This document shows positions 4,878 through 38,132 of a stretch of DNA of 64,000 bases, in pieces. The position numbers and the translations under genes were made by a program. A model generated the notes under the pieces. That model had not been told where the DNA came from and made no database searches. It saw nothing but the letters and a program-made list of their open reading frames with translations. The stretch lies in assembly GCA_965140585.1 (NCBI GenBank), contig OZ223272.1, positions 448,001 to 512,000 of the forward strand, given 5' to 3'. How positions within the stretch are numbered: position 1 is the first letter of the stretch; each line of letters starts with the position of its first letter. Source of the stretch: Spirochaetia bacterium. Lineage in GTDB: Bacteria; Spirochaetota; Spirochaetia; UBA9216.

Positions 4878-4880
4878 TTC

Positions 4881-7769: not shown

Positions 7770-8195
7770 TTTTTCCTCCTCTGAAATCATTCAAAAACAG
7801 TTTTATATGATTAAATCGATATTTATTACTGTCAAATAGTATCATAGTAACAATATTTGACATAGTTTTTTATCTAATCACCTCTTTCAATAAATAGTAC
7901 ATTTATATCCCTTCTTCGCCCGTCGGCCGGAGGTCCGGGCGTCTTCTTCTTGTCGGGCTCATTGCACATAACGTCTGCGGTTATATGACGTTTGGCGCAG
8001 CCAAATGTGCCGCAGGCCGAGGCCGAATGGCCGATGCAAATAACCGCTGTTATATAAAGTACTTGGGCTCACTAGTTTCTTCCCCAAAAGACAAGGACGT
8101 ATTTTGGGATCCAATATTAATCTACTTCTTTTCTCTTCAACTCTTACTCTTCAATCTCTTTATTTCAATAATGTTCCTAACTTTATCATAGAATA

Positions 8196-8711
8196 TTAAA
8201 TATTTGTTTTTTTGTTAATATTGTAGATCATTAAAAATTCCTCTTCATTCTCACCTATTATTTGGAACCCTATGTTTTGATACATCTTTAAAGCGTAGTT
8301 ATCTTTTTGTACAGCTAAACTTGCTTTCTTAAAACCTTTATCTCTTAATAATTTCAACATTGAAATCATCAAAGAAGTACCAATTCCATATCCTCTAAAA
8401 TCTTTTAGAATCGATATTGCGAACTCTGGAGTTTTATCATCTATATTCCCAAAGCCTTTGATTTGTTCGGATAATATCCTAACCCAAACACAGCCTATTA
8501 TTTCTTTTTCATATTCTGCTACTAAGCAATAATCTGATTCTTTTCCAAACTCCGCAATATAAACCTGAAGTTCAGGCTTTTTAATTATATCTTTTGGCAG
8601 TCGATCCTTATTATTCTTTTGAAATATTGCCTCGTAGAGAAAATTGTCTAATACATAAATTTCCGATGTTTTAATGTTTCTAATCTTGTAGTTGATTTGA
8701 TTCTTTTTCAT
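8196..8711 (-). CDS. GNAT acetyltransferase (cassette 1)
   Basis: FRGYGIGT, SLAVQKDN, YQNIGF motifs. Confidence 0.88.
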   Translation of the reverse strand: MKKNQINYKIRNIKTSEIYVLDNFLYEAIFQKNNKDRLPKDIIKKPELQVYIAEFGKESDYCLVAEYEKEIIGCVWVRILSEQIKGFGNIDDKTPEFAISILKDFRGYGIGTSLMISMLKLLRDKGFKKASLAVQKDNYALKMYQNIGFQIIGENEEEFLMIYNINKKTNI

Positions 8712-8958
8712 AATTTCTCAATAATTTCTATCATAAAATTTTTCAATCCTTCTCTTACCCTTTTTCTCTTTTTCTTCACGAGCCAGGACGGCGAGTGCTG
8801 AATCCTCTTCGCCCAAGTATTTCATATAACGTCCCGGGGTTAAGCGAAGTTGCGAAGCAATTTGGGCGCAGGCCGAAGGGCCGGAGCCGCTTAACCCCTG
8901 TTATCTGAAGTATTGTGGCTTAAGCCGTAATTACAGGACGTAATTACGGCTTTCTTCT

Positions 8959-9183
8959 CTACGATAACTCTCGAGCTTCTCTAATAACATCAAGAATTTC
9001 TTTGGTTGTAACTTTACTTTTAATTCCTGGAACATCAAATGGCGATTTGCTTTCATTTTTAGTAAGCGGTACAATCTTAAATCTGCTTCCATCCTTCTTT
9101 GCTATTATGACATCTTCTTCTGCTGCCATATTCAATATTGAAGCAAAATTCTGCCTAGCTTCTGAATAATTAAAAACTCTCAT
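8959..9183 (-). CDS. Phd/YefM family antitoxin (cassette 2)
   Basis: YSEARQNFASILN N-terminus. Confidence 0.85.
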   Translation of the reverse strand: MRVFNYSEARQNFASILNMAAEEDVIIAKKDGSRFKIVPLTKNESKSPFDVPGIKSKVTTKEILDVIREARELS

Positions 9184-9576
9184 TCAGACCTCCAATAAGT
9201 GGACTCCTAAATCATTAGCCACTTCTTTCATTCTATTATCCAAACTCAACAAACTGCATTTGTATCGTTTTGCTATTTCCAAATAATACGCATCGTAAGC
9301 ATATATTCCATAATCTGCTGCTATTACTAATGAGTTTTGAATATTAACATCAATCAAACGCACTGGTATTTTCTGAAATATTGAATAACAATCAATTATT
9401 TGACTCTTATCTAATCTATTTCTTTTATACATTACAGATAGAGCGTTTCCCACTTCGAAAGGTAAAACAACCGGTGATATCAGATCATCTTCCTGAGTTA
9501 ATCCAATTATTTTGCTTTTTTCCGGCTCATCGAGAATTACTGCTAAATATATGTTTGCATCTACCAATATACTCAT
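9184..9576 (-). CDS. PIN-domain (VapC) toxin, upstream of its antitoxin (cassette 2)
   Basis: ILVDAN...YAYDAYYL...LLSLD PIN motifs; start moved to ATG at 9576. Confidence 0.88.
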   Translation of the reverse strand: MSILVDANIYLAVILDEPEKSKIIGLTQEDDLISPVVLPFEVGNALSVMYKRNRLDKSQIIDCYSIFQKIPVRLIDVNIQNSLVIAADYGIYAYDAYYLEIAKRYKCSLLSLDNRMKEVANDLGVHLLEV

Positions 9577-9611
9577 GTGTACATTGTACAACACTTTTTA
9601 AATTTTATCAA
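9577..9611 (-). promoter_or_regulatory. Sigma70 promoter with TGTACA operator; probably leaderless transcript
   Basis: TTGATA-17-TACAAT, ATG 6 nt after the -10; two TGTACA palindromes around the -10. Confidence 0.7.
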
Positions 9612-9778
9612 TCTTAATTCTTTCTAACGAGCCAAGGAAGGCGAGTTTCTTCAAACCACAATATTTCGGATAACGTTCTGAGAATAGGCGAAGTTGGCCA
9701 CAGGCCAATTTGGGTGAAGCGAAGCGGAACCGCCTATTCTCTGTTACAGGAAGTTGATTGAGCTACCTTAGTTCAATC

Positions 9779-11135
9779 GATAACGTAAAAAATCTTTCGC
9801 ACATTTAAAAAATAATGGAAAAGGTCCTCAAGAAGGTTTAATATTTTTTCACCACAAAAAATGAACCAAAGAGAGGACCTTTATGGCAACAAATGAGCCA
9901 GGTAAAATTATACAAATAGATGAGCATTTAGTCCAATCACAATTGAAAGAAGTTGTGAGAGACACTGTTGAAGAAACTCTGAATTCTTTGCTCGATGCAG
10001 AAGCTGACAGGCTTTGCGGAGCAGAAAAATACGAGCGAACTGATGCACGTAAAGATACCCGTGCTGGCTATTACAAACGAAACCTTGATACATCTGCCGG
10101 TCGCGTTGAACTCAAAATGCCTAAGCTAAGAAATCTGCCTTTTGAAACAGCAATTGTCGAACGGTATAAGCGCCGAGAGGCTTCGGTTGAAGAGTCTCTG
10201 ATTGAGATGTATCTGGCCGGAGTTTCTGTTCGTCGAGTTGAAGATATTACCGAAGCACTCTGGGGAACCAAGGTTTCATCAGGTACTGTAAGTAATTTAA
10301 ATAAACAGATTTATGAGTAAATAGAAGCTTGGCGGAACAGACCTATCAAGGAGTATTACCTTTATGTTTATCTCGATGGCATAGTATTGAAGCGCTCCTG
10401 GGCTGGAGAAGTTAGAAATGTATCAGTTTTGGTGGCTATAGGGGTCTCAGAGAGCGGTTATCGTGAAATAATTGGTGTTGCCGAGGGAGCAAAAGAGGAT
10501 AAAGCAGGCTGGAGTGACTTCCTGAAGTTCTTGAAATCCCGAAGGCTTAAAGATGTTAAATTGATTATCTCTGATAAGTGTATGGGCCTTGTAGAATCGA
10601 TCTGTGAATACTTCCCCGAATCCAGATGGCAACGCTGTGTAGTGCATTATTACCGCAATGTTTTTTCTGTAGTACCTCGTGGAAAAATGCGAGAAGTTGC
10701 TGCAATGCTTAAAGCAATTCATGCTCAAGAAGATAGAGATGAGGCATTGAAAAAGGCTTCATATGTAGCTAAGAAACTTGAAGATATGAAACTTCACAAA
10801 GCATCGAAAAAGGTATCTGAATGTATCCATGAAACCCTTGAATACATGTTCTTCCCAGAACAGCACTGGCAAAGAATTAAGACGAATAATCCACTGGAAC
10901 GGATCATGCGGGAAATCCGAAGGCGTACCCGAGTAGTTGGTAATTTCCCTGATGGAAATTCTGCTCTTATGCTGGTCTCTGCTCGGCTCCGACATATTGC
11001 CGGAACAAAATGGGGCACAAAAAAATACTTGAACACTGCTCTTTTGAAGGAGTATGATTACATAGAAAAGGAGGTACTTGCATAGCATCTTCTTGAGGAC
11101 CAAATCTGAAAGTGCGAAAGATTTTAAGCGCTACC
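9779..11135 (+). mobile_element. IS256-family insertion sequence
   Basis: Imperfect TIRs (GATAACGTAAAAAATCTTTCGCAC / GGTAGCGCTTAAAATCTTTCGCAC); 8-bp target duplication GTTCAATC at 9771-9778 and 11136-11143. Confidence 0.92.
9883..11085 (+). pseudogene. IS256 transposase with in-frame nonsense codon
   Basis: EMYLAGVSVRRV, YLDG, QRCVVH, TNNPLER motifs; TAA at 10318-10320 with the frame continuing IEAWRNRP. Confidence 0.9.
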
Positions 11136-11541
11136 GTTCAATCATCATACCACAACCAAATTTTTCTGTTGGTCTCTTGAAGAAACCAAATTTCTCATAA
11201 AATTCTTCTTTTCCTTTTGCTGCCATTAAAGTGATATAAGAATTTTCTGGAGCATTTTCTTCGAGATAAAGCATTATGCTATTCATTATTTTTGCACCAA
11301 TTTTCTTTCCTCGAAAGTCAGGCTTTACAATTATGTCAGAAATAAAATATATAAAGCCTTTATCACCTACAATTCGTCCCATTCCAATTAATTCAGAATC
11401 AGCATAAGCTGTCACACAATATTCTGTATTACTTAATGATATCTGTATTGAGTGATCCGGCGGTAAAGGCCATCCAACAGATTTTCTAAGTTCTTTAAAT
11501 GATGTCAAAGTTATTATTTCTTTTCTGATCTCAATTTTCAT
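11131..11541 (-). CDS. GNAT acetyltransferase (cassette 3; extreme C-terminus altered by the IS)
   Basis: IGMGRIVGD, DIIVKPDFRGKKIG, FYEKFGF motifs. Confidence 0.88.
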   Translation of the reverse strand: MKIEIRKEIITLTSFKELRKSVGWPLPPDHSIQISLSNTEYCVTAYADSELIGMGRIVGDKGFIYFISDIIVKPDFRGKKIGAKIMNSIMLYLEENAPENSYITLMAAKGKEEFYEKFGFFKRPTEKFGCGMMIER

Positions 11542-11763
11542 TAAAGTCCTCAATCAATTTCCTATAACGTCCCGGGTTAAGCGAAGCTGAAGTGCTACTA
11601 CAGGAGAGTTTTGCGAATGCGCAAAACCGACTGAACTTGCTCTGCTTCTTCGTAAGCTTCAGTTTGGGTGAGGCCGTATGGCCGAACCGCTTAACCCTTG
11701 TTATCTGCTGTGAACCAGCGTTCCAGACCGTATAACGGAGTTAGGTCTGAAAATTCTTCATTC

Positions 11764-12162
11764 TTATATACTCCAATCTTCGATTTTTAACCCTTTCACT
11801 CTTTCGAATTCTTTAACATTGTTTGTTACAAATATTAATTCTTTATTTAAAGCTTGTGCAGCTAATAACATATCTATTGGACCTATAATCCGACCTTGTT
11901 TTCTTAAATCTGTCTTTAACCTTCCATAATCTATAGCATCTGAATCATCGAAATTTAAAATATTAAAAATCGATAAGAATTTTAGCAATGCAATACGATT
12001 ATTCTCAATCTTTTGACTATTTTCAACTCCAAACTCTAATTCAGCAACTGTTAGGGATGATATGTAGATTCCATCTGAAATCTTTTCTTTCAATTTCTTT
12101 AAAACCGATTCTGGTCTTTTTTTAATTGCGAAAATACAAATATTTGTATCTAATAAATACAT
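11764..12162 (-). CDS. vapC: VapC toxin (PIN), cassette 4
   Basis: YLLDTNIC, GPIDMLLAAQAL, VTNNVKEFERV. Confidence 0.93.
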   Translation of the reverse strand: MYLLDTNICIFAIKKRPESVLKKLKEKISDGIYISSLTVAELEFGVENSQKIENNRIALLKFLSIFNILNFDDSDAIDYGRLKTDLRKQGRIIGPIDMLLAAQALNKELIFVTNNVKEFERVKGLKIEDWSI

Positions 12163-12392
12163 TAGAAACTTTCCCTTTCTTGATTCTTTCCCTGTTCTCT
12201 TCCTGTATCCATAAAATCATCCGAAAACTCATTAATCCCTTCAACGAATATTTCCCATAACTTCTCATGTGGAAATAATAAAACAGCATCACCGTGCTTT
12301 TGAATATAAACTTCATCTCCTCTGAACTGGTACTCTTTTGGTAACCTAACTGCTTGAGATCTGCCATTCATAAATATTTTTGCTGTTTGCAT
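12162..12392 (-). CDS. vapB: VapB/VagC AbrB-type antitoxin, cassette 4
   Basis: AKIFMNGRSQAVRLPKEYQF. Confidence 0.93.
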   Translation of the reverse strand: MQTAKIFMNGRSQAVRLPKEYQFRGDEVYIQKHGDAVLLFPHEKLWEIFVEGINEFSDDFMDTGREQGKNQERESF

Positions 12393-12410
12393 ATTATCAC
12401 CTCTATATTA

Positions 12411-12439
12411 AATATATACCTTGATATATACCTTGTCAA
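12411..12439 (-). promoter_or_regulatory. vapBC promoter/operator
   Basis: TTGACA-17-TATATT containing two AGGTATATAT repeats. Confidence 0.7.
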
Positions 12440-12651
12440 ACATTACTTTATCCAAAATCTATTATTTTCTTAATCGCCCGTCGGCCGGAGGTCCGGGCGT
12501 CTTCTCTTCGCTGGTTTATTGCAGATAACGTTCCAGGGTTATACGACGTTCGGCGCAGCCCGTAGGCCGAATGGCCGGAGCGTGTAACCCTTGTTATGCG
12601 CTTTGAGCCTGACATCCAGACCGTTCAACGGAGTTAGGTCTGGATTCTTCT

Positions 12652-13173
12652 TTAATATCGCTCTTCTCTATTTCTTCTATCTATATCCTTCTCAATCTCT
12701 TTAATCATATCATAGTATTCTGAATCAATTGAGAATTTTACACTAACTTCTTTTCCATCCTTCTTATATAATATAATAAAATAAGTATTAGAACCTATCA
12801 TATTAATATTCTTCTCTTCTAAATATTCCACATTTCTTTTTTCAATAATTTCAATATTTTTTTTAAAAATATTGATTATAAGAAATTTTTCATTACCCCA
12901 ATATACAATCTTTATTTTTCGATATGTAAATAAATAAATGCATAAATAAACAACAACCACCAAAATGAAAAATGGTAAAAAACTATTTTTTATAAATCCA
13001 AATGAATACATTAAAAAATATCCAATAATTATTATTGGAAGCAAATATTTAATAACAAAATGCGAATCATTTGAGACTTTCCTATAACCATCATTAATTA
13101 AATTAACGTTATCATCTTTGCTGATTTTATATTCCATTTTTAAAAAATCAATTATTCTTTTTATTATATTCAT
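12652..13173 (-). CDS. Hypothetical membrane protein (cassette 5)
   Basis: 173 aa, two TM segments, AT-rich. Confidence 0.65.
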   Translation of the reverse strand: MNIIKRIIDFLKMEYKISKDDNVNLINDGYRKVSNDSHFVIKYLLPIIIIGYFLMYSFGFIKNSFLPFFILVVVVYLCIYLFTYRKIKIVYWGNEKFLIINIFKKNIEIIEKRNVEYLEEKNINMIGSNTYFIILYKKDGKEVSVKFSIDSEYYDMIKEIEKDIDRRNREERY

Positions 13174-13504
13174 TATTAATTATCCCTTTCTAAAAAACTT
13201 TGTATTCTTATGTTCTTAAAGTATTAAAAATCAATTTAAACAATCATTTTTGTTAAACACTATAGTATTTTTCATTTTTCCTTCTTTCTCGCCCGTCGGC
13301 CGAAGGTCCGGGCATCTTACTCTTGTTAGGCTCATTGCGTATAACGTTCCGGGGTTATGTGACGTACGGCGCCAAGCCGTATGTGGCGCAGCCCGAGGAG
13401 CGTATAGCGACGAAGCACATAGCCCCTGTTATCTGCTGTATTTTCGCCTCTTCGACCAGGCCGTACGGCGGGGCCAGGCTGGGTTCTTAAAATCCTCTTT
13501 ACTT

Positions 13505-14401
13505 CTAATTATATCTTCTCGTTCCTATTCTTCTAAACAGAAAACCTCCAATACAAGTATCTTCATATTTCGTACCTGGATATACATCATCAATTCTAAT
13601 TATTACTTCCTGATCGCAGAATACTTTGGTATCGATAAATTGAGGATTAGCGGTATCTTCTATCTCATAGGCCCGCTCAATATCCTTATCTTTACTAATG
13701 ATAGTAAACTTTTTTAATCTTGAATTTTCTGAATACAGTCGTGGTGAATCAAATGATATGTATCCATTAATTATATAAAATCCATCAATTATGCCCTTAT
13801 CACCAGAGAAATGTGTTAAATTCATATAAATTTCTTCACCTAAACCATTTCCAGAAGCAGCTTCAGCCCATGGATGTTTTAGATCAATATAAATTAAATT
13901 TTGCGCTTCATAATCAACCTTCTCTTCGGTTAAATGCGAACTCGAGGTAATTCTTGTAGATAATGATGCGAAACGGTATTTCTTTAAAAATTCTTGTGTA
14001 GCCCCAATAAAGATGGCACTATTTGTCTTATTTAATTGTTCTGACATATAAACTAATAGTAATTCATCATTCTCAAGAAGCAATAGCTTTCTTTCCCCAT
14101 TCACTGTTAAGTAATTAAACCCATTAACCTTTTCTATCTCATAATCTTCGTATAAAACTTCGGAAGGTATTTCGTATGAAACAGCATTTTCATACTTTGA
14201 ATTAATTCCCACACCTGCTTCATTATCCAATCTAAATTGCTGATCACTTATTTCTATTCTTAAATCATCACCAAAAAATGGATCTTCATAATAAAAGGGA
14301 TTATCAATTTGTGCGTAAATCATTTCTAAAGTGAAAAACAATATTGATATACTGATTAACTTTTTCACATCTTCTCCAATATTTTCATTTTTAATCATCA
14401 A
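13505..14401 (-). CDS. Secreted protein with NADase-type glycan-binding / discoidin-like C-terminal domain (cassette 6)
   Basis: WAEAASGNGLGE, INGY...YSENSRLK, DDVYPGTKYEDTCI motifs. Confidence 0.7.
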   Translation of the reverse strand: MMIKNENIGEDVKKLISISILFFTLEMIYAQIDNPFYYEDPFFGDDLRIEISDQQFRLDNEAGVGINSKYENAVSYEIPSEVLYEDYEIEKVNGFNYLTVNGERKLLLLENDELLLVYMSEQLNKTNSAIFIGATQEFLKKYRFASLSTRITSSSHLTEEKVDYEAQNLIYIDLKHPWAEAASGNGLGEEIYMNLTHFSGDKGIIDGFYIINGYISFDSPRLYSENSRLKKFTIISKDKDIERAYEIEDTANPQFIDTKVFCDQEVIIRIDDVYPGTKYEDTCIGGFLFRRIGTRRYN

Positions 14402-14610
14402 AATATGATTACACTTTCTTAATAGCCCGTCGGCCGGAGGTCCGGGTGTCTTCCTCTTTGCGGGGGCATTTCAGCTAACGTTCCAGGGTTACACGACGTT
14501 GGCGCAGCCGAATGTGGCGCAGCCCAGAGGCCGAATGGCCGAAGCGTGTAACCCTTGTTATCTGCTTTGAACCCGTCATCCAGACCGTTCAACGGAGTTA
14601 GGTCTGGATT

Positions 14611-14800
14611 CTTCCTCTCTTCCTCTCTTCCTCTCTTCCTCTCTTCCTCTCTTCCTCTCTTCCTCTCTTCCTCTCTTCCTCTCTTCCTCTCTTCCTCTCT
14701 TCCTCTCTTCCTCTCTTCCTCTCTTCCTCTCTTCCTCTCTTCCTCTCTTCCTCTCTTCCTCTCTTCCTCTCTTCCTCTCTTCCTCTCTTCCTCTCTTCCT
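14611..14800. repeat. Tandem repeat (CTTCCTCT) x ~23.75
   Basis: Direct reading; begins right after the cassette-7 trailer hairpin. Confidence 0.97.
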
Positions 14801-14830
14801 GTCGATAAAATCAATTCTTTCCCAACTATT

Positions 14831-15298
14831 TCAAGTTAAAGACTTATCAATCGCCTCTCTAATTTTTAAAATCTCTTGGAGCTTTCTTTCCCTTAATATT
14901 TCAATAAATTTATCAGCTTCACCTTCATCAAATTTTATTTCAACTTCTTGTATATTATTTTTATTATTTTCAAAAGTAAGTTTAACTATTCTTTCATCAA
15001 TTTTTACTATATCTTTTATTTTTAAAATCTTAACACTTTTGCCATATACTTCTAAAATTATTAGATCTTCACTGATTATGACATTATACCTTCTTATTAA
15101 GATAGGGGCCAAAGATTTACCCAACACATAAACGCTTATTATGAATGATATAAATATTGCTTTTATCTCAAACCGACTCGGAAAAACTTTATAAACCACA
15201 AAAAAACTAGCAATAATCATCCCAAATTCAACAAGCCCAACTTTTCTTATTTCTTTTGGCTGATAAAATGTATATCTTCCATTTTTATATTTATACAT
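14831..15298 (-). CDS. Hypothetical membrane protein (cassette 7)
   Basis: 155 aa, two TM segments. Confidence 0.65.
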   Translation of the reverse strand: MYKYKNGRYTFYQPKEIRKVGLVEFGMIIASFFVVYKVFPSRFEIKAIFISFIISVYVLGKSLAPILIRRYNVIISEDLIILEVYGKSVKILKIKDIVKIDERIVKLTFENNKNNIQEVEIKFDEGEADKFIEILRERKLQEILKIREAIDKSLT

Positions 15299-15499
15299 AT
15301 TGCTTATTCCTTAGCTATATTTATAAAATTGTAACTATCATTTATTTATAACTCAAAAACCACATACAAAATCTTCGCCCGTCGGCCGGAGGTCCGGGCG
15401 TCCTCTTTCCTGACGGGTTCATTGCTTATAACGTTCTGAGAATGTGCGAAGTCGCCGCAGGCGATTTGGGTGAAGCGAAGCGAAACCGCATATTCGCTG

Positions 15500-16147
15500 T
15501 TATGTGTCGTTTTTTTGGTTTCGGTGAAATTTAAACACATATGCATACGCTTTTTTTGTAAAATTTTCTCCTACCATTTTTTTCTGGACTTCCTCTAAAT
15601 CAATTGGAGTATTGTCGTCTTTTATAAAATACTCATCTAAATCTGTATCAGTAATACTGAACTTGTCTCCATTTCGTTTAATTATAGCAATTAACTCATA
15701 CTCTTCATCCGCATAGGCGAGACTTGCATCACCATGGCTATTATTACAGACTAATATGCCTTGATTTTTTAAGTATTTTTTACAGGATTGTGAAATAAAA
15801 CCGGCATAAAATGAAAATAAAATATCGAATGAATACATATCAATTGGTAATTCACTTGAAAAATCAGCTTGAAATGCTTGAATCGTAGGATCTTCCTCAT
15901 AGCTTTTATTGAGTTTGATAAAATTTAAGACTTTTTCATCTTCAAAGAACTTTGAAATTCTTTTATCCGAATCAATATATGTCATTTCACGAATATAAAA
16001 TGAAGGAGAAATATGTACAAAACTGCCAGGATAAATACCTTTTGTAGGATTGTATAAGTTCTTTATATTTTCAAATAATTTTTTTCGTTCATCTTTTTTG
16101 TCAATAAAGTATTGCTTATATAACTTCGGTATTTCTAATTCTTTCAT
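15500..16147 (-). CDS. Conserved hypothetical protein, possibly SAM-methyltransferase-like (cassette 8)
   Basis: YPGSFVHISPS, YIDSD, FDILFS...LKNQGILV; stop codon lies inside the R box. Confidence 0.65.
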   Translation of the reverse strand: MKELEIPKLYKQYFIDKKDERKKLFENIKNLYNPTKGIYPGSFVHISPSFYIREMTYIDSDKRISKFFEDEKVLNFIKLNKSYEEDPTIQAFQADFSSELPIDMYSFDILFSFYAGFISQSCKKYLKNQGILVCNNSHGDASLAYADEEYELIAIIKRNGDKFSITDTDLDEYFIKDDNTPIDLEEVQKKMVGENFTKKAYAYVFKFHRNQKNDT

Positions 16148-29566: not shown

Positions 29567-29803
29567 TTTCTCATTATACCTTTTTTGGGCCAGGACGGCC
29601 CAAAAACACCCTCCGAAGCCGCCTTTTTATTGAACATAACGTCCGCGGTTATGTGATGTTTTGTGGTCGGCCCTACAGGCCGATTGGCAACTCTTTTGCA
29701 TTCAGCGCCTTTACCCTCTATCTTTCTCCATTTCGCAAAAGTGGTGACAAAACAAAATATGCCGCAGGCCAAGGAGCGTCTAGCGACGCCGCACATAGCC
29801 GCT

Positions 29804-30202: not shown

Positions 30203-30271
30203 GTCCCGGGGTTAAGCGAAGTTGCGCAGCAATTTAGGCGTAGGCCGAATGGCCGGAGCCGCTTAACCCCT

Positions 30272-30674
30272 GTTATGCGACGTCGCTTTTTATTAGAGAA
30301 AGATTCCGATCAATCAAGTGATCTAAAAGAATCTCCACTTCTTATTTCTACCCAATATTCTATTCGCCCTTTGCGACTTTCTCAATCATTTTTATTTTAT
30401 CTGCAAGTCAACGAGCATAGCGAGTGAAGCAGACTTGCTGAACGGAACAACCTGCTGCGCCCGCGAAGCAGATTTTGATAATTATAAGCCAATACTTTTT
30501 CTTTAACGTCAGAACAAACATCGTCCAACGCAACGACCTTCTTCTAACAACCAAATCAAAATCCAAAATCTTCCTCATTCCAGGGCGAATTGAATATTGT
30601 AAACTATTTGGTAATCACTTGTGGTTCGGAACTTTCTCCACCCCAAGATCATGCTCCTGCGATGTCCGCATAAC
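30272..30674. repeat. ORF-less cassette family A, copy 7 (most divergent)
   Basis: Clustered substitutions in the left half. Confidence 0.88.
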
Positions 30675-31062
30675 GTCCCGGGGTTATATGACGTTTTTAT
30701 TTTTCTTAATTTTACCACCAATTACCCGTATTTACCAATTATAAACTATTGCTTCATGTCTGTGCATTTAACGACGATTTGAGTAGCAAAATCGGCCGAG
30801 TCTTCGAGGCATGGCGCAGTTCTGGAACGTAGCGCGATCAGCGCGAAGTGTCTTTAGCCAGAACTGTGACAAAGATTTTGACTACTCCAAATCTCTTGTT
30901 AAATGCTTACACCCAACTTACCCAAATCATAAAATAAAAATGTGGCGCAGCCCGAGGAGCTTATAGCGACGAGCAAATAACCCCTGTTATAGGCAGTAAG
31001 CGCCTCTTTGATTACATGTAGTGAGGCACGGATGCCGAACGGTAATCTTGCTATCTTTTCTG

Positions 31063-32271
31063 CTATTCTCCTCTATCTATGTTCATCATACTATTCTTAT
31101 ATTCTTTAGATGCATTTGAAACATTCATTTCTGGATATACCAATAAACCATCGAAAACAACCTTTGGTTCTATTTCAATAGTATCTCGATAAAATCCAAA
31201 AATAATTCTTTCATTAATTGGAGCATATTTAAAATCGAGAAAAGCATAACGACTACTGTCCTTTTCTCCAATTAATTTCATTAAATTTTCTTCTTTAGAG
31301 TTTTTTACAAAATCAAATTGAAAAGTTTCTGAATCTGCCCAATTATCCTTAAATTCACCTTTCAACCCAAGAGTTAAAATATGATATAATTCTTCACTTC
31401 CATATTTATTTTGCATTTTTTCTCCTATAACTTGTAATCCTTCAATTCCAAGATTCCATTGATTCTTTTTTTGAGCATGCCACAATCCGCAATTTATAAT
31501 AATTTTATCATTTGGTCGAAGCTGTTCAATCTTATTACTAATTTGTTCAAACATAGCTTCTTCTCTAAATTCCCAAGAATAATTCTTTTTATATTCCAGC
31601 GTTTTCAATTCGAATTTAGTCATTTCTATCAATGTATTAACAACTTCTGTATTTATAGTATTTTTATATAGTGATAATACGTTCAAATAATTTCTTAATA
31701 TTTCTTCATAATTAGAAGATGAATGTTCGAGCGTCTGGCTACTTTCAAGTAAATTAATATCTTCTATTTCATTTAGATTCAGGATGGTAATTACTGCATT
31801 CTTAAAAACATCATCTTTATGATTTAGATCAAAACATGAAATTGATATCATTGCTTTATTATTCTTCTTTAATTCAGCATTTATATTTCTTACTTCTAAT
31901 AAAATATCTTTATGTAATCCTAATATAAGGTCATCAAGTATGAACGATTCATCTTTTACATATAAATCATATATATAGGAGTTTGCATCCATATCTTCTA
32001 TCAAAAGATATCTATACCCTTCTTCATAAGCACTTTTTATTATAAGAGATAACATTAAAACATGCTCTTCAATATAATGAGTTTCACCTATAAAGATGAT
32101 TCGATTCTTTGAAAAAGCGGTTAATAAATTTTCTGGTAAATTCGATATTGATTTTGGCTTATCAAAATATGAGGCTTCACTAACATATTTTCGTTCTGGA
32201 GATTGTTGCTTGGTTGTGCAACTAAAAAGTATTAATAAAATCAAAATAAGAGCTGTAAACTTTTTTAACAT
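31063..32271 (-). CDS. Lipoprotein, EreA/ChaN-like (erythromycin esterase superfamily) (cassette 28)
   Basis: Lipobox LFSC; IFIGETH, LLIE, REEAM, IIINCGLWHAQK, FDGLL. Confidence 0.65.
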   Translation of the reverse strand: MLKKFTALILILLILFSCTTKQQSPERKYVSEASYFDKPKSISNLPENLLTAFSKNRIIFIGETHYIEEHVLMLSLIIKSAYEEGYRYLLIEDMDANSYIYDLYVKDESFILDDLILGLHKDILLEVRNINAELKKNNKAMISISCFDLNHKDDVFKNAVITILNLNEIEDINLLESSQTLEHSSSNYEEILRNYLNVLSLYKNTINTEVVNTLIEMTKFELKTLEYKKNYSWEFREEAMFEQISNKIEQLRPNDKIIINCGLWHAQKKNQWNLGIEGLQVIGEKMQNKYGSEELYHILTLGLKGEFKDNWADSETFQFDFVKNSKEENLMKLIGEKDSSRYAFLDFKYAPINERIIFGFYRDTIEIEPKVVFDGLLVYPEMNVSNASKEYKNSMMNIDRGE

Positions 32272-32494
32272 TTTATATATCCTTCATTCTTAAATGTTTG
32301 AGCCATGGACGGCTCAAACTCTTATTCTTAATTACTCTTGGCGCTTATTGACTATAACGTTCCAGGGTTATACGACGTTCGGCAAAGCCGAATGTGGCGC
32401 AGCCCGGAGGCCGTATGGCCGGAGCGAATAACCCTTGTTATAGGCAGTAAGCGCCTCTTTGATTACATGTAGTGAGGCACGGATGCCGAACGGA

Positions 32495-32702
32495 AATCTT
32501 TCTTCTTAATCTTTCTTCTTAATCTTTCTTCTTAATCTTTCTTCTTAATCTTTCTTCTTAATCTTTCTTCTTAATCTTTCTTCTTAATCTTTCTTCTTAA
32601 TCTTTCTTCTTAATCTTTCTTCTTAATCTTTCTTCTTAATCTTTCTTCTTAATCTTTCTTCTTAATCTTTCTTCTTAATCTTTCTTCTTAATCTTTCTTC
32701 TT
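32495..32702. repeat. 13-mer tandem repeat (AATCTTTCTTCTT) x16
   Basis: 208 bp counted directly. Confidence 0.96.
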
Positions 32703-33191
32703 AACAACATCTTCATAAATCATTGAAACAGCATCTGGAATGGATAAGTTTGAATTAATTCTGCTCTCAGAAATAATTCCAATCAAATCTTCTTCTCTCC
32801 ACCACTTCCTCATATCCTCTTCTCCAAAATCAGAACTATTTGATTTCGATTTATGTCGTCGTATTGTCTCTTCAAAAGATAAATCATAATAATAAGCAAA
32901 TATTTCAGAGTCAAATTCTTCTATTGCTTTTTTAAATAATCTAAGATAATAATCTGAGTATAAAATACCTTCTAAAATTACAAATTCTGAATTTCTCTTT
33001 CCATATTTAATTAATTCCTCTAAAAGTGGGATTGCCTTATTTTCAATTCTATCATGAACCCATAACATCTCTCTTCTTATATAATCCTGAGAAATCATCA
33101 TAGTATTTCGACCCAATTTTCTTTGTAATGATTTTGCTAAGGAAGTTTTTCCACTTCCTGAATTACCTCTAATAATTATTAGCTTTGACAT
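32688..33191 (-). CDS. P-loop (AAA_33-like) kinase, copy 1 (cassette 29)
   Basis: IIIRGNSGSGKT Walker A, VILEG. Confidence 0.85.
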   Translation of the reverse strand: MSKLIIIRGNSGSGKTSLAKSLQRKLGRNTMMISQDYIRREMLWVHDRIENKAIPLLEELIKYGKRNSEFVILEGILYSDYYLRLFKKAIEEFDSEIFAYYYDLSFEETIRRHKSKSNSSDFGEEDMRKWWREEDLIGIISESRINSNLSIPDAVSMIYEDVVKKKD

Positions 33192-33379
33192 CTACTTTTT
33201 ATTTCCCTCTTAGAATCCGCCACGGAAGGCGGATTTCTTTCTTCTCGAAAAATCTTGGCGCTTATTGCCTATAACGTTCCAGGGTTATACGACGTTCGGC
33301 AAAGCCGAATGTGGCGCAGCCCGGAGGTCGTATGGCCGGAGCGAATAACCCTTGTTATAGGCAGTAAGCGCCTCTTTGA

Positions 33380-33913
33380 TTACATGTAGTGAGGCACGGA
33401 TGCCGAACGGAAATCTTTCTTCTTAACAACGTCTTCATAAATCATTGAAACAGCATCTGGAATGGATAAGTCTGAATTAATTCTGCTCTCAGAAATAATT
33501 CCAATCAAATCTTCTTCTCTCCACCACTTCCTCATATCCTCTTCTCCAAAATCAGAACTATTTGATTTCGATTTATGTCGTCGTATTGTCTCTTCAAAAG
33601 ATAAATCATAATAATAAGCAAATATTTCAGAGTCAAATTCTTCTATTGCTTTTTTAAATAATCTAAGATAATAATCTGAGTATAAAATACCTTCTAAAAT
33701 TACAAATTCTGAATTTCTCTTTCCATATTTAATTAATTCCTCTAAAAGTGGGATTGCCTTATTTTCAATTCTATCATGAACCCATAACATCTCTCTTCTT
33801 ATATAATCCTGAGAAATCATCATAGTATTTCGACCCAATTTTCTTTGTAATGATTTTGCTAAGGAAGTTTTTCCACTTCCTGAATTACCTCTAATAATTA
33901 TTAGCTTTGACAT
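33380..33913 (-). CDS. P-loop kinase, copy 2, with 10-aa C-terminal extension (cassette 30)
   Basis: Single 13-mer unit, so no TAA is formed; ends FRSASVPHYM. Confidence 0.85.
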   Translation of the reverse strand: MSKLIIIRGNSGSGKTSLAKSLQRKLGRNTMMISQDYIRREMLWVHDRIENKAIPLLEELIKYGKRNSEFVILEGILYSDYYLRLFKKAIEEFDSEIFAYYYDLSFEETIRRHKSKSNSSDFGEEDMRKWWREEDLIGIISESRINSDLSIPDAVSMIYEDVVKKKDFRSASVPHYM

Positions 33914-34133
33914 CTACTTTTTATTTCCCTCTTAGAATCCGCCACGGAAGGCGGATTTCTTTCTTCTCGAAAAATCTTGGCGCTTATTGCCTATAACGTT
34001 CCAGGGTTATACGACGTTCGGCAAAGCCGAATGTGGCGCAGCCCGGAGGCCGTATGGCCGGAGCGAATAACCCTTGTTATAGGCAGTAAGCGCCTCTTTG
34101 ATTACATGTAGTGAGGCACGGATGCCGAACGGA

Positions 34134-34276
34134 AATCTTTCTTCTTAATCTTTCTTCTTAATCTTTCTTCTTAATCTTTCTTCTTAATCTTTCTTCTTAA
34201 TCTTTCTTCTTAATCTTTCTTCTTAATCTTTCTTCTTAATCTTTCTTCTTAATCTTTCTTCTTAATCTTTCTTCTT
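34134..34276. repeat. 13-mer tandem repeat (AATCTTTCTTCTT) x11
   Basis: 143 bp counted directly. Confidence 0.96.
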
Positions 34277-34765
34277 AACAACATCTTCATAAATCATTGA
34301 AACAGCATCTGGAATGGATAAGTTTGAATTAATTCTGCTCTCAGAAATAATTCCAATCAAATCTTCTTCTCTCCACCACTTCCTCATATCCTCTTCTCCA
34401 AAATCAGAACTATTTGATTTCGATTTATGTCGTCGTATTGTCTCTTCAAAAGATAAATCATAATAATAAGCAAATATTTCAGAGTCAAATTCTTCTATTG
34501 CTTTTTTAAATAATCTAAGATAATAATCTGAGTATAAAATACCTTCTAAAATTACAAATTCTGAATTTCTCTTTCCATATTTAATTAATTCCTCTAAAAG
34601 TGGGATTGCCTTATTTTCAATTCTATCATGAACCCATAACATCTCTCTTCTTATATAATCCTGAGAAATCATCATAGTATTTCGACCCAATTTTCTTTGT
34701 AATGATTTTGCTAAGGAAGTTTTTCCACTTCCTGAATTACCTCTAATAATTATTAGCTTTGACAT
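34262..34765 (-). CDS. P-loop kinase, copy 3 (cassette 31)
   Basis: Protein identical to copy 1. Confidence 0.85.
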   Translation of the reverse strand: MSKLIIIRGNSGSGKTSLAKSLQRKLGRNTMMISQDYIRREMLWVHDRIENKAIPLLEELIKYGKRNSEFVILEGILYSDYYLRLFKKAIEEFDSEIFAYYYDLSFEETIRRHKSKSNSSDFGEEDMRKWWREEDLIGIISESRINSNLSIPDAVSMIYEDVVKKKD

Positions 34766-34927
34766 CTACTTTTTATTTCCCTCTTAGAATCCGCCACGGA
34801 AGGCGGATTTCTTTCTTCTCGAAAAATCTTGGCGCTTATTGCCTATAACGTCCCGGGGTTATACGACGTTCGGCAAAGCCGAATGTGGCGCAGCCCGAAG
34901 CCCGAATGGGCGGAGCGTATAGCCCCT

Positions 34928-35328
34928 GTTATGCGACGTCGCCTTTATTAGAGAAAGATTCCGACCAATCAAACGATCTAAATAATCTCCTCTTACCATT
35001 TCTACCCAATATTCTATTCGCCCTTTGCGACTTTCACAATCATTTTTATTTTACCTGCAAGTCAACGAGCAAAGCGAGTGTGGCAGACTTGCCAAACGGA
35101 AAAACCTGTCATGCCCACGAAGCAGATTTTGATAATTATAAGCCAATACTTTTTCTTTAACGTCAGAACAAACATCGTCCAGCGCAACGACCTTCTTTTA
35201 ACAACCAAATCAAAATCCAAAATCTTCCTCATTCCAGGGCGAATTGAATATTGTAAACTATTTGGTAATCACTTGTGGTTCGGAACTTTCTCCACCCCAA
35301 GATCATGCTCCTGCGATGTCCGCATAAC
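34928..35328. repeat. ORF-less cassette family A, copy 8
   Basis: Similar to A1 with small indels. Confidence 0.9.
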
Positions 35329-35406
35329 GTCCCGGGGTTATACGACGTTCGGCAAAGCCGAATGTGGCGCAGCCCGAAGCCCGAATGGGCGGAGCGTATA
35401 GCCCCT

Positions 35407-35809
35407 GTTATGCGACGTCGCCTTTATTAGAGAAAGATTCCGATCAATCAAACGATCTAAATAATCTCCTCTTACCATTTCTACCCAATATTCTATTCGC
35501 CCTTTGCGACTTTCACAATCATTTTTTTTCACCTGCAAGTTAACGAGCAAAGCGAGTGTGGCAGACTTGCCAAACGGAAAAACCTGTCATGCCCACGAAG
35601 CAGATTTTGATAATTATAAGCCAATACTTTTTCTTTAACGTCAGAACAAACATCGTCCAACGCAACAACCTTCTTCTAACAACAACCAAATCAAAATCCA
35701 AAATCTTCCTCATTCCAGGGCGAATTAAATATTGCAAACTATTTGGTAATCACTTATGGTTCGGAACTTTCTCCACCCCAAGATCATGCTCCGGCGATGT
35801 CCGCATAAC
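35407..35809. repeat. ORF-less cassette family A, copy 9
   Basis: Similar to A1 with small indels. Confidence 0.9.
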
Positions 35810-35974
35810 GTCCGCGGTTATGTGATGTTTTGTGGTCGGGCCCTACAGGCCGATTGGCAACTCTTTTGCATTCAGCGCCTTTACCCTCTATCTTGCTACT
35901 ACTTCGCAAAAGTGGTGACAAAGCAAAATATGCCGCAGGCCAAGGAGCGTTTAGCGACGCCGCACATAGCCGCT

Positions 35975-36372
35975 GTTATACGCCGTCACAGAATAAAGAA
36001 AGTTGTACATCATCTTCATAATCTAAACATTTATTTCACATTTCAAACTTCTTTAATATTCTATTCGACCATACTGACTTTCACAATCTTTTTTATTTAC
36101 TCCGCAAAATAACGAGCTTTGCGAGTGGGCCAGTTTTGCATAAACGTTTCTGCATGCCCCAGCCCCGTACAGATTTTGATTATTCCAAAGCCAAAACTCT
36201 TTCATAGAACGTCAGAAAAAAGTCATTGTTTGAAATTTTTCTTCATCAAAATAGAAATCAAAATCTGAAATCATATCTTAGTCGAAGAGAATATTGCCAA
36301 CTTATTATTTCATTATTAAGCGCAGCAACTTTCTTCCACCCAATATCCTTGCCCAAAGTGATGGAGTATAAC
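35975..36372. repeat. ORF-less cassette family B, copy 4
   Basis: Similar to B1. Confidence 0.9.
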
Positions 36373-36622
36373 GTCCGTGGTTAAGCGAAGCTGATGCGCA
36401 ACTAAAGGAGTGTTTTGCGAATGCGCAAAACCGACTGACCCTGCTCTACTTCTCCGTAAGCTTCAGTTTGGGTGAAAGCGCCATGGCGCTTTCACCGCTT
36501 AACCATTGTTATGTGCTTTGAGCCCGACATCCAGACCGTTCAACGGAGTTAGGTCTGGATTCTTCTTTTCTTTTCCCAGGATTCTGAAAATAATCAATAC
36601 TGCTGTAAACACGTATTATGTT

Positions 36623-37201
36623 TTATAATCCTATTACTCTATTCCAATCTGCAATATACATATAAATTCTTTGAAATTCTGATGGTAGTAGCATTCTATT
36701 ATGTGCTATAAAATTTCTTGTTTTTTCAAGTTCATCCATTCTTTGTTTTAACCAATGTTGCGATGGTATCAAGGTTTCAAAAAAATGCCAAAACTCAATC
36801 ATAATTTGAGACAGCATTCCAAAATCTATAAAACCAAGAAGATCAGATTTTTCACCTTCTAACCAACTATCTTTTAAAGCGGATTCCTGACGTCTTTGAG
36901 CATGATCTTTTATTCTATTTGGAATCGAATCCCACCAATTTACCCCGATATTTTCCTGTAATGTTTCTCGAATTAGATCTCTTATTTCATTTTCAAAACA
37001 AAATATTAAACTATATAAACGAGACATTTCTAGTGCTTTATTTCTCCTATTAATCGAGAAAGGAGAGATAACCTCATTTGTTAAATCTATCTCAGTTCTC
37101 GAATCAGAAGCCCCTATTTGTATTCCTGCTTTTTGAAATTTATTTGCTTCAGATTCAAACATTAACCCTCGAAAAAGATAATCTCTTAAATCTTTAGTCA
37201 A
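36623..37201 (-). CDS. Swt1-like HEPN domain protein (cassette 35)
   Basis: FENEIRDLI..L....G.NWW, RNFIAH (RxxxxH). Confidence 0.8.
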   Translation of the reverse strand: MTKDLRDYLFRGLMFESEANKFQKAGIQIGASDSRTEIDLTNEVISPFSINRRNKALEMSRLYSLIFCFENEIRDLIRETLQENIGVNWWDSIPNRIKDHAQRRQESALKDSWLEGEKSDLLGFIDFGMLSQIMIEFWHFFETLIPSQHWLKQRMDELEKTRNFIAHNRMLLPSEFQRIYMYIADWNRVIGL

Positions 37202-37814
37202 TTAAATGCTCCTTAACACTTTTAAATATTGCGTTATAAACTTCTATATCTTTTGTTGCTGGTAAATGTATCTGAATATTATAATGTAATGAAGTTTGAC
37301 TGATCTTCCTTTCAATTGACTCAATTTTTTCTGGCTCGATTTCTTCTTTCTCATTATCATTATCTTCTACTATTTTTGTCTCTTCAACTACATCAGAATT
37401 TATATCTGCAAATTCTAATAGTGAATAAAATGTTTTCATCATCAATTCTGCATTGCGTTCTGAAGTATTATGAGTACTTTTAAACTTACCTTTTATTAAT
37501 TCTTTATCTTTATCTTCAGGATATCTGCTAATAGTAAAAATATCCGAATATGCCTCTTTAATTGCTTTGCCCAAGATTTTTCGTGATAAAGCTTCATTTC
37601 TAAATTCTTTATATTCATCAGTTGGTGATCCATCCTCTGTTAAAAACCCTAAAGCTTTTAATAATGGAATAAATGCTCTATGATTAGTCGAAGTAAATCC
37701 TATATCTTTCAAATGCTGATTAGTAAATTTCCCAGGAGCTTGTCCTTGTTTTATTTTATTAAAAAAATCTCCTAATTGACCATAAACTTGCAGCGGAATA
37801 TTTGCCAAACTCAT
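37194..37814 (-). CDS. DUF5343 domain protein (cassette 35)
   Basis: APGKFT..HLKDIGF, LKALGFLTEDGSPT, YNIQIHLPAT. Confidence 0.8.
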   Translation of the reverse strand: MSLANIPLQVYGQLGDFFNKIKQGQAPGKFTNQHLKDIGFTSTNHRAFIPLLKALGFLTEDGSPTDEYKEFRNEALSRKILGKAIKEAYSDIFTISRYPEDKDKELIKGKFKSTHNTSERNAELMMKTFYSLLEFADINSDVVEETKIVEDNDNEKEEIEPEKIESIERKISQTSLHYNIQIHLPATKDIEVYNAIFKSVKEHLID

Positions 37815-38132
37815 ATTCTCTCCCTTTATTTAAATTATTTCATATATATAACATTATAACGCTAAAATAATAATTTGGATCCTTAAAAATCACAACTTAA
37901 ACATTCTCTCTTCGCCCGTCGGCCGGAGGTCCGGGCGTCTTCCTCTTGTCGGGCTCATTGCACATAACGTCCCGCGGTTATGTGATGTTTTGTGCTCGGC
38001 CCTACAGGCCGATTGGCAACTCTTTTGCATTCAGCGCCTTTACCCTCTATCTTTCTCCATTTCGCAAAAGTGGTGACAAAACAAAATATGCCGCAGGCCA
38101 AGGAGCGTCTAGCGACGCCGCACATAGCCGCT

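Follow-up and report, generated by a model that had tools for sequence, protein, structure and literature searches.

Hairpins with GGA loops and pairing between a cassette's own ends at the attC sites of an integron-type gene cassette array beside a Xer-like recombinase in a Spirochaetia genome

The stretch of DNA analyzed here (64,000 nucleotides [nt] of a Spirochaetia bacterium, contig OZ223272.1, positions 448,001 to 512,000; hereafter the window) carries an array of 37 gene cassettes in which two recurrent hairpins, a leader and a trailer, lie on either side of attC recombination sites. We show that a composite junction module of integron-type gene cassettes has the leader and the trailer as its outer hairpins, and it is well supported that these structured elements are borne by cassettes, anchored to attC and specific to one strand, and that they make up a single block with attC once the cassette is circular. 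To our knowledge, integron biology has held that attC ends at the R box and that the integron integrase (IntI), with its extra domain, is the only cassette recombinase; the shared hairpins, together with pairing between the two ends of each cassette, beside an unusual recombinase suggest a new variant of the integron gene-capture system.

The extent of the array and the starts of its attC sites are as follows:

7968..39079, - strand: cassette array, 37 cassettes, cargo open reading frames (ORFs) on the - strand
attC starts (ATAAC...GTTAT on +): 7968, 8826, 9670, 11564, 12525, 13341, 14475, 15428, 16169, 17863, 18346, 19157, 19630, 20193, 21407, 21890, 22373, 23207, 23768, 24251, 25068, 26202, 26681, 27471, 28712, 29636, 30198, 30670, 32354, 33271, 33993, 34845, 35324, 35805, 36368, 37964, 38527

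Since the cargo ORFs lie on the - strand, the + strand is the attC bottom strand. The 37 sites, which were aligned and yielded a consensus structure, are imperfect palindromes of 73-321 nt in one orientation, with R''-L''...L'-R' boxes (AAC/GTT), an unpaired spacer and a variable central loop. A structural caller recovered 36 of the 37 and no further match on either strand of the 64-kb window, and an Rfam search found no family in the array at E <= 1. A covariance model (R1; 218 sites at E <= 0.01) missed the window's 173-175-nt attCs, returned 0 sites in the canonical array described below and was not used for counts. Each attC's left flank has its pairing partner in the right flank of the attC before it and not in its own right flank, which places the cassette boundary inside ATAAC...GTTAT; identical gene-less cassettes start and stop at these ATAAC/GTTAT boxes. 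With a crossover in ATAAC (between ATAA and C), the leader is part of the lower-coordinate cassette and the trailer part of the attC's own cassette. Ownership of the outer-stem arms, stretches of 10-18 nt found on both sides of each attC, is divided likewise, the left arm belonging to the lower-coordinate cassette and the right arm to the attC's own.

The leader, CGCCCGTCGGCCGGAGGTCCGGGCG (25 nt), has 13 matches at <= 3 mismatches, 9 of them exact and all on the + strand, at the places given by the preliminary description of this DNA (with 14424 and 26151 in place of 14425 and 26152), and the same search in 100 shuffles gave 0 matches. All copies were located by sequence match:

7917..7941, + strand: leader, exact; the last one, followed by genes that are not cassette-like
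12475..12499, + strand: leader, exact; PIN/MazE cassette
13290..13314, + strand: leader variant, GAA loop, terminal A
14424..14448, + strand: leader variant, 2 mismatches, one of them a G.T pair on +
15376..15400, + strand: leader, exact
17812..17836, + strand: leader, exact; PF00144-fold cargo
21356..21380, + strand: leader variant, inner stem GGCC/GGCC
23156..23180, + strand: leader, exact; CopG/DUF4258 cassette
25017..25041, + strand: leader, exact
26151..26175, + strand: leader, 1 mismatch
27422..27446, + strand: leader, exact; GNAT cargo
28661..28685, + strand: leader, exact
37913..37937, + strand: leader, exact; DUF5343 + HEPN cargo

Leader and trailer both fold as had been described, and the leader loop is C-GGA-G in 12 of the 13 copies and C-GAA-G in one, the copy at 13290 for which a GAA loop had already been reported. 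The cargo of leader-bearing cassettes is unrelated (PIN/MazE, CopG/DUF4258, GNAT, PF00144 beta-lactamase-fold, MBL-fold, Ank+SH3, NADase_transloc, DUF5343+HEPN and several ORFs without a family), which bears out the earlier claim that both hairpins are cassette-end modules common to unrelated genes.

For the trailer, a 32-mer gave 7 matches at <= 3 mismatches in the window, its 28-nt core added an eighth, degenerate copy at 11723, and the covarying variant pattern proposed earlier gave 3 matches at <= 2 mismatches. A structure-based search of the 37 cassettes yielded 12 trailer-family hairpins (8 with AAC-GGA-GTT and 4 with GGC/GGT-GGA/GGG-GCC/GTC), in agreement with the previous count of about eight trailers and four covarying variants:

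11721..11752, + strand: trailer, degenerate (28-nt core and structure search)
12614..12645, + strand: trailer, exact (sequence match)
13455..13484, + strand: trailer variant GGC-GGG-GCC (variant pattern and structure search)
14578..14609, + strand: trailer, exact (sequence match), followed by an 8-nt tandem repeat at 14610-14800
16272..16303, + strand: trailer, exact (sequence match)
20300..20331, + strand: trailer, 1 mismatch (sequence match)
22476..22507, + strand: trailer, exact (sequence match)
24363..24394, + strand: trailer variant GGC-GGA-GCC (variant pattern and structure search)
25179..25210, + strand: trailer variant GGT-GGA-GCC, T.G on + (variant pattern and structure search)
26791..26823, + strand: trailer variant, outer stem fully compensated (AACCCAACC/GGTTGGGTT), inner GGC-GGA-GTC (structure search)
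27632..27663, + strand: trailer, exact (sequence match)
36529..36560, + strand: trailer, exact (sequence match)

The 40 distinct trailer variants in the data retain both the inner helix and the loop: the inner 3-bp helix is paired in 40/40 (AAC/GTT, GGC/GCC, GAC/GTC and GCC/GGC forms) and the loop is GGA in 39/40 (closures: 38 C-GGA-G, one T-GGA-G, one C-GGG-G). Double-change cells, indicative of compensatory change, number 37 against 13.4 (standard deviation [sd] 3.0) after shuffling, with 0/500 shuffles as high, and several outer stems are fully compensated. In a MAFFT alignment the 3' arm falls out of register wherever the bulge is A or AA, so the alignment's figure of 66% for outer-helix pairing is an understatement, and a register-aware listing was used instead. 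The near-identical trailer of about 57 bp that had been noticed in cassettes 28 and 29-31 is likewise real, with 58/60 positions identical after attC 30670 and after attCs 32354, 33271 and 33993 and with different cargo behind it (a 402-aa ORF versus a 167-177-aa P-loop kinase-like ORF). Pyrimidine-rich tandem repeats directly follow some trailers (14610-14800, an 8-nt unit in about 24 copies; 32487-32700 and 34127-34275, a 13-nt unit), the 13-nt repeat array being found in two of three near-identical cassette copies and not in 33359-33992.

Placement ties both hairpins to attC. The junction order on the + strand is leader, a T/C-rich spacer of ~11 nt, ~16 nt, ATAAC-attC-GTTAT, ~16 nt and trailer; 24-27 nt separate the end of the leader from ATAAC, both in the window and in the arrays of four relatives, 105 of 149 leaders in 80 other stretches have a called attC 24-26 nt downstream, and the trailer starts 16-22 nt after GTTAT. 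The distance from the hairpins to start and stop codons is widely variable. Leader and trailer also occur together: among 31 distinct window cassettes, 12 have both, 0 have one only and 19 have neither (Fisher p = 7e-9), and the recombinase-adjacent arrays of four other genomes contain 5 cassettes with both, 2 with the leader only, 0 with the trailer only and 15 with neither. The two form a contiguous block around attC in the circular cassette, which the crossover in ATAAC splits such that the leader and one arm come to lie at the 5' end of the integrated cassette and the other arm, the trailer and attC at its 3' end.

As GC-rich palindromic units lying between genes in an AT-rich region, the hairpins resemble repetitive extragenic palindromic (REP) or bacterial interspersed mosaic element (BIME) repeats and intrinsic terminators, and the preliminary description had allowed that they might be genome-wide REP elements. 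In the whole genome (4,851,726 bases, 10 contigs), however, 13/13 leader and 8/8 trailer matches fall inside the array on the same strand; with no copy outside the array in 4.85 Mb and all copies in one array on one strand, the hairpins are not REP elements. Unlike REP/BIME repeats and terminators, they are restricted to the array, fixed in strand and distance to attC and linked to cassettes, and we consider it highly improbable that they are such elements lying between genes by chance. A terminator scan flags only 28832-28863 (2 sites against 6.1 expected, sd 2.7), which is weak evidence given that the scan is blind to bulged stems. The hairpin tails are TCTTCTTC-like on the + strand and A-rich on the - strand.

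No sequence conservation is seen in the ~16 nt that lie between each hairpin and attC, yet the 5' arm of each cassette is complementary to the arm outside its own attC, and the two can pair as an outer stem. In the window this own-end stem is present in 37/37 cassettes, with a mean score of 10.97 compared with 4.23 for the array neighbor and 3.73 (sd 0.48) for permuted ends, and 0/5000 permutations reach the observed value. The same holds in other genomes (85 stretches, 234 sites, 157 cassettes, 91 of them distinct), where 78/91 cassettes score >= 7 (mean 10.93, median length 16) as against 14/91 for the neighbor and a permuted mean of 2.93 (sd 0.22). Because most of the 85 stretches were retrieved through exact matches to the leader, leader counts in this set are biased; the end-pairing test is not. 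A first attC caller, based on the longest common substring, diluted the signal elsewhere (own-end score >= 7 in 43% of cassettes) and was replaced by the structural caller. Canonical arrays of the same genomes, which have another attC type and whose sites were located with an nhmmer profile of four copies because a general AAC...GTT caller was too noisy, reach a score >= 7 in 6/34 cassettes (mean 5.13, permuted 2.36, sd 0.26), and their end pairing extends ~4-6 bp beyond the 5-nt box.

Only circularization of the cassette brings the two arms side by side, and the outer stem thus reads as a signature of selection on that form; it is direct evidence, from sequence comparison, of selection on an excised, single-stranded circle. 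Wobble pairs in the outer stem are 24 G.T versus 2 A.C on the + strand in the window and 66 G.T versus 4 A.C in the other genomes. An irregularity, T.G or T.T, is conserved 5-6 positions from the R box: T.G stands at position 6 in 54/78 stems of the other genomes, and T.T at positions 5-6 is common where it is absent. Folding the computed circular junctions with DNA parameters gives one continuous stem (outer stem, R box, 4-5-nt bulge, L box) with a hairpin on each side. A literature search returned no account of an outer or extended stem in connection with attC or integrons, although such arrays may be among the entries in the tables of IntegronFinder (PMC4889954) and Ghaly et al., and PMC3053210 does not discuss the sequence flanking attC.

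In ORF cassettes that lack the family hairpins, both places are occupied by different, unrelated GC-rich hairpins. Their loops on the + strand are AGGAC, AAGGAC, AAGGAA, ATGGAC, ACGGAA, AGGGAT and (A)CGGA(T). In total, about eight unrelated hairpin types at cassette ends have GGA in the loop on the attC bottom strand; the non-family ones are as follows:

8083..8108, + strand: trailer-side hairpin, loop AAGGAC
8922..8952, + strand: trailer-side hairpin, loop AGGAC
18458..18489, + strand: trailer-side hairpin ..ACA-CGGA-TGT.., one G.T on +
28832..28863, + strand: trailer-side hairpin ..ACA-CGGA-TGT..
31025..31036, + strand, with copies at 32476-32487, 33393-33404 and 34115-34126: trailer-side hairpin GGCA-CGGA-TGCC, inside the shared ~57-nt trailer
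8777..8797, + strand: leader-side hairpin, loop AGGAC, tandem G.A in the stem (read by eye)
9627..9646, + strand: leader-side hairpin, loop AAGGAA (read by eye)
19106..19127, + strand: leader-side hairpin, loop AGGGAT, one G.T on +
29582..29606, + strand: leader-side hairpin, loop AGGAC
32296..32319, + strand: leader-side hairpin, loop ATGGAC
33213..33236, + strand, with copies at 33935-33958 and 34787-34810: leader-side hairpin, loop ACGGAA

By automatic detection and reading combined, 20/22 ORF cassettes of the window have a hairpin at both ends, and in the two exceptions the ORFs reach the outer-stem arms. An automatic count ranks GGA first of the 64 trinucleotides in hairpin-enclosed loops at both ends (16/29 and 15/29 distinct window cassettes); GGA likewise ranks first in the recombinase-adjacent arrays of other genomes (11/22 and 12/22), and in canonical arrays it is found in 6/34 and 6/34 cassettes, at ranks 3 and 4.

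The hairpins also favor one strand. Wobble pairs read from the hairpin listings are 10 G.T versus 1 A.C on the + strand, and folds with DNA parameters are more stable on the bottom strand in 30/40 trailers (p = 0.004). GNA triloops (C-GGA-G, C-GAA-G) are known to form very stable DNA mini-hairpins. We therefore tentatively favor, at somewhat less than even confidence, the reading that the GGA-loop hairpins are accessory structures of bottom-strand single-stranded DNA (ssDNA), a reading that draws together the selection on the circle seen as the outer stem of the same cassettes, the fixed spacing to attC, the bottom-strand wobble bias, the C-GNA-G loops and the enrichment beside a recombinase with a possibly fork-binding domain (see below). 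On the bottom-strand circle the order is leader hairpin, pyrimidine-rich spacer of ~11 nt, outer-stem arm, attC, arm and trailer hairpin, and the hairpins would stand on either side of the fork from which the extended attC stem rises. As accessory arms they might hold the long attC stem in register or insulate it from cargo sequence, or they might serve as a binding platform for the extra domain of the recombinase or for another protein that reads GGA loops.

The wobble bias is equally what bottom-strand RNA would leave, and the hairpins could be antisense RNA elements, in an array transcribed against its genes, acting as CsrA/Rsm-type sites or as terminators or insulators that keep antisense transcription from the ORFs. 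The high-affinity form of a CsrA/RsmE site is an ANGGAX hexaloop directly atop a stem (PMC4005645), and loops of the form C[ANGGAX]G or C[AGGAC]G are seen in at least seven unrelated hairpins; GGA in a short loop on a GC stem, with ANGGAX-type loops on the + strand (ACGGAA, ATGGAC, AGGGAT, AAGGAA, AAGGAC, A-CGGA-T), is a likeness to the sites described there (PMC4005645). Additionally, three trailers read CACGGATG, the genome encodes CsrA (PF02599, 90.9 bits), and in the window the hairpins flank ORF cassettes only, with T/C-rich tracts after them. However, GGA lies opposite the gene strand here, so that this reading needs antisense transcription, and promoter-like matches on the + strand are at the chance level (32 versus 30.1, sd 6.3, expected on both strands). 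The commonest loop, a GGA triloop closed by C-G, lacks the A of ANGGAX, no U-run lies behind the canonical hairpins, the + strand as a whole is rich in T and C, and csrA is too common a gene to be specific evidence. We consider this explanation unlikely.

Hairpins that bracket ORFs, are missing from gene-less cassettes and accompany two different attC types could also act in the sense mRNA, where, reading UCC, CCUCC or UCCG, they would cap cistrons, either protecting ends processed near attC, with which their anchoring to attC is consistent, or masking the Shine-Dalgarno (SD) sequence as anti-SD mimics. The leader loop as RNA, ACCUCC, resembles the 3' end of 16S rRNA; RNA-parameter folds are equally good on the sense strand, and in the canonical type of cassette the leader starts 11-14 nt after a conserved, promoter-like -10 (TAAAAT or TAATAT), which would place it at the 5' end of a transcript. 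The wobble pairs are harder to accommodate, since 10 G.T versus 1 A.C turn into A.C mismatches in sense RNA. Moreover, the leaders of both toxin-antitoxin cassettes lie upstream of the cassette's own promoter-like site and thus outside the transcript (PIN/MazE, TTGACA-N17-TATATT on the - strand, downstream of the 12475 leader; CopG/DUF4258, TTGACT-18-TATACT at 23124-23095 on the - strand, downstream of the 23156 leader), and stabilizer hairpins would leave an invariant loop triplet in about eight unrelated hairpins unexplained. A role in sense mRNA is, in our estimation, rather improbable.

The recombinase beside the array is the second component that departs from known integrons:

39080..40153, - strand: tyrosine recombinase, 357 aa, transcribed towards the array
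39010..39079, + strand: putative attI, the last ATAAC junction (between ATAA and C), between the first cassette and the 3' end of the recombinase gene; function predicted

Between the end of the gene and the first cassette junction lie 70 nt; the outer-stem arm of that cassette runs up to 39009. The gene product has a tyrosine recombinase catalytic domain (PF00589, E 1.6e-42, with PF13495) and matches NF040815 at 229 bits (cut-off 220), but reaches only 192.8 with the IntI model TIGR02249, in two stretches and below the cut-off of 265. Its nearest structures are archaeal XerA, and against VchIntIA (2a3v) query residues 255-277 span chain residues 178-241, with ~40 residues missing at the site of the IntI-specific domain. 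Since IntI is defined by an extra domain near patch III (PMC4889954, 10.1101/2022.02.06.479319), the array-adjacent enzyme is not an IntI. The N-terminal ~60 residues form a beta-beta-alpha-beta-beta-alpha domain in an AF2 model (pLDDT 90.8) whose best fold match in the PDB, albeit weak, is the HARP domain of SMARCAL1 (4o66; E 0.04, prob 0.99, TM 0.62). The HARP family PF07443 scores 22.5 bits on the protein against a cut-off of 25 (E 8e-5) and is matched by 29/53 recombinase homologues at E <= 0.01 (best 4.1e-8). The enzyme is, as judged from its sequence and predicted structure, a Xer-like recombinase with an N-terminal HARP-like domain, and the array and the adjoining recombinase probably work like an integron.

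Homologues with co-oriented downstream attC arrays are found in one genome of the same genus (96% identity) and three of other genera (52-57%), with 14, 3, 6 and 6 attC sites in the expected orientation at their loci as against 0, 1, 0 and 0 in the opposite one. A literature search found no description of this recombinase or of a link between HARP and integrons, although the tables of PMC4889954 and of Ghaly et al. may list such recombinases. Like IntI, including the "reverse" integrases of Treponema integrons, in which the integrase abuts the first cassette and is transcribed in the cassette direction (PMC3607928, PMC4889954), the recombinase abuts the first cassette and is co-oriented with the array; unlike IntI, it is without the IntI-specific domain and has the N-terminal HARP-like domain. 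Cury et al. described recombinases without the IntI-specific domain that co-localized with fewer than three attC sites (PMC4889954), compared with 37 here.

A second, canonical integron is present in the same genome (contig C6, about 916.6-945 kb), with an IntI of 419 aa (TIGR02249 377.9 bits, in one stretch) oriented divergently to an array with at least 16 attCs, which are of another type (~135 nt). Its cassettes have a conserved 5' element of ~65 nt with a promoter-like TTAGxx-N18-TAAAAT. Where the leader and trailer occur in canonical cassettes, the trailer lies 2-12 nt from the box and the leader 69-74 nt, behind the ~65-nt element with its promoter-like -35/-10. The hairpins are enriched in Xer-type arrays and not exclusive to them, and parts of cassettes have evidently recombined between the two systems. 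An insertion of ~245 nt (30696-30940) in the central loop of attC 30670-30990 holds a copy of a canonical, C6-type attC together with its flanking sequence. Exact copies of the 22-nt leader core are present in 83 stretches from the genome collection, mostly in metagenome-assembled genomes of Spirochaetia; > 40 of the stretches are on one chromosome, and a few are on contigs binned as other phyla. The sharing of modules among unrelated genes would reflect a family of cassette junctions circulating among the arrays of marine Spirochaetia and not a single rigid prefabricated frame.

The most numerous cassettes of the window, 15/37, are gene-less and belong to two families:

17951-18345, 19236-19629, 21495-21889, 21978-22372, 23856-24250, 26286-26680, 30277-30669, 34933-35323, 35412-35804, 38615-39009, - strand: gene-less family A, 10 copies, 391-395 nt
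19804-20192, 23381-23767, 29809-30197, 35980-36367, 38138-38526, - strand: gene-less family B, 5 copies, 387-389 nt, attC 173-175 nt

Family A has an outer stem of 11-12 bp and copies 92-100% identical to the reference copy; family B has an outer stem of 10 bp, mutual identities of 94-100% and ~60% identity to A. The gene-less cassettes carry a conserved promoter-like TTGTGA-17-TAGAAT on the sense (-) strand, facing the downstream cassettes. By analogy with the promoter cassettes reported among gene-less cassettes of Vibrionaceae (10.1101/2023.11.21.568050), both families may be promoter cassettes.

Several observations weigh against the favored reading of the hairpins as ssDNA accessory structures for this recombinase. 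Neither gene-less family has GGA hairpins (0/15), while outer stems are present, indicating that cassettes can multiply without the hairpins; as the 15 gene-less cassettes represent only two related families, the counter-argument is weak. The leader and trailer family occurs in 5-6/34 cassettes of the canonical arrays of three relatives, so neither the outer stem nor the Xer-like recombinase is a strict requirement for its presence. Among more remote homologues of this enzyme (up to 41% identity; Bacteroidota, Firmicutes and others; 80 loci, 18 with the N-terminal domain), no downstream arrays were detectable with two callers; their R boxes may differ, so the missing arrays are no evidence of absence. 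Fold energies with RNA parameters show no strand difference (p = 0.42), and many of the non-family loops are penta- or hexaloops (AGGAC, ACGGAA, ATGGAC) that are not GNA triloops and fit the CsrA consensus. Finally, we know of no protein that reads GGA in hairpin loops of ssDNA.

A bolder extension of the ssDNA reading, which we hold only as a doubtful possibility, is a second integron-like lineage without IntI, in which a Xer-type recombinase with a HARP-like, fork-recognizing domain would act on a site made up of an attC core, a 16-bp outer stem that exists only in the circle and GGA-loop, arm-type hairpins. The outer stem would favor excision energetically and pre-fold the circle for insertion, and cassettes would pass to and from the canonical integron of the same cell. 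Xer-type recombinases are known to use folded single-strand sites (CTX phage attP), and IS200/IS605 elements have subterminal hairpins. The shared feature would be strand-specific folded DNA read by a recombinase or transposase, with co-oriented hairpins at the two ends of a unit that moves as an ssDNA circle; the likeness is one of analogy only, since our array has no HUH transposase context and its hairpins lie away from the crossover.

The sharing of junctions had been taken to mean that genes are captured into a pre-existing frame of leader, trailer and att. It is true that the modules are shared and contiguous in the circle, and a scar or tool of cassette genesis, whether a ready-made leader-attC-trailer frame takes up genes or the joining of a gene to an attC leaves the hairpins behind, would account for identical 22-25-nt leaders and near-identical trailers around unrelated cargo in the window and in many Spirochaetia bins (the 83 stretches), as well as for modules re-framed with the second attC type. 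A single frame is not what we find, however: leader, arms, attC class and trailer subtype are only partly congruent, with an invariant leader found beside attCs of six or more length classes (73 to 145 nt) and with covarying outer-stem arms, and there are 0 empty frames among the 37 window cassettes and the 157 cassettes called in other genomes, the shortest cassette bodies (286-289 and 387-395 nt) lacking both hairpins. The compensatory changes and the GGA rule in unrelated hairpins argue for ongoing selection for structure and not for a neutral scar, and we regard such an origin as quite improbable. Junction sharing by itself does not show how cassettes arise, and the finding on its own leaves the origin of cassettes unsolved.

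In other respects the array resembles the cassettes of sedentary chromosomal integrons, with which it shares tandem cassettes, R''/L''/L'/R' palindromes, one ORF orientation, diverse cargo including toxin-antitoxin cassettes and an attI-like junction by a tyrosine recombinase; it differs in complementarity that extends 10-18 nt beyond the R box to join the ends of one cassette and in the GGA-loop hairpins that flank the site. The homogeneity of attC sequences within a host group has been described (PMC8352920), and junction sharing in one host group extends this taxon-level conservation (PMC8352920). The DUF1874 motif, a candidate multistem, attC-like ssDNA proposed to be an unusual attC (Weinberg et al. 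2017, PMC5737381), is likewise a structured element beyond one hairpin in consecutive intergenic regions, whereas the junctions described here have no Rfam match, a normal attC core and an adjoining recombinase gene.

The array thus offers sequence-independent pairing of both ends of every cassette; a strand-specific GGA-loop rule common to unrelated hairpins and conserved across genera whose recombinases are 52-57% identical; and 37 cassettes on a Xer-like recombinase that falls outside the definition of IntI, in a genome that also has a canonical integron with another attC type and some of the same modules. Own-end pairing, the GGA rule and the Xer-like recombinase would widen what counts as an integron. 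Leader, trailer, outer-stem arms and attC class are new, datable markers whose partial incongruence can trace the rebuilding of cassettes.

Over window positions 11500-14600, contigs of four sequencing runs (some labelled marine metagenome) have a depth 10- to 40-fold higher over the leader-attC-trailer junctions than over cargo, so that junction modules are far commoner there than any single cassette; these contigs contain many joints of ambiguous content and were not used as evidence on excision. An IS256-like element (~9760-11130, +) interrupts cassette 9670 between its outer-stem arm and its ORF; a stop divides the element's transposase frame into ORFs 9883-10320 and 10387-11085. Past the last attC (7968) and the leader at 7917 lie - strand genes at 3897-7587 without a detectable attC (two unknown ORFs, Fer4, YCII, polysaccharide deacetylase, GNAT and NUDIX), which may be decayed cassettes or chromosomal flank. 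Outside the array, Rfam gave a weak match to Spot 42 and a T-box leader at 50278-50598 (-; 75.4 bits, gathering score 93) upstream of a 599-aa ORF at 48466-50265.

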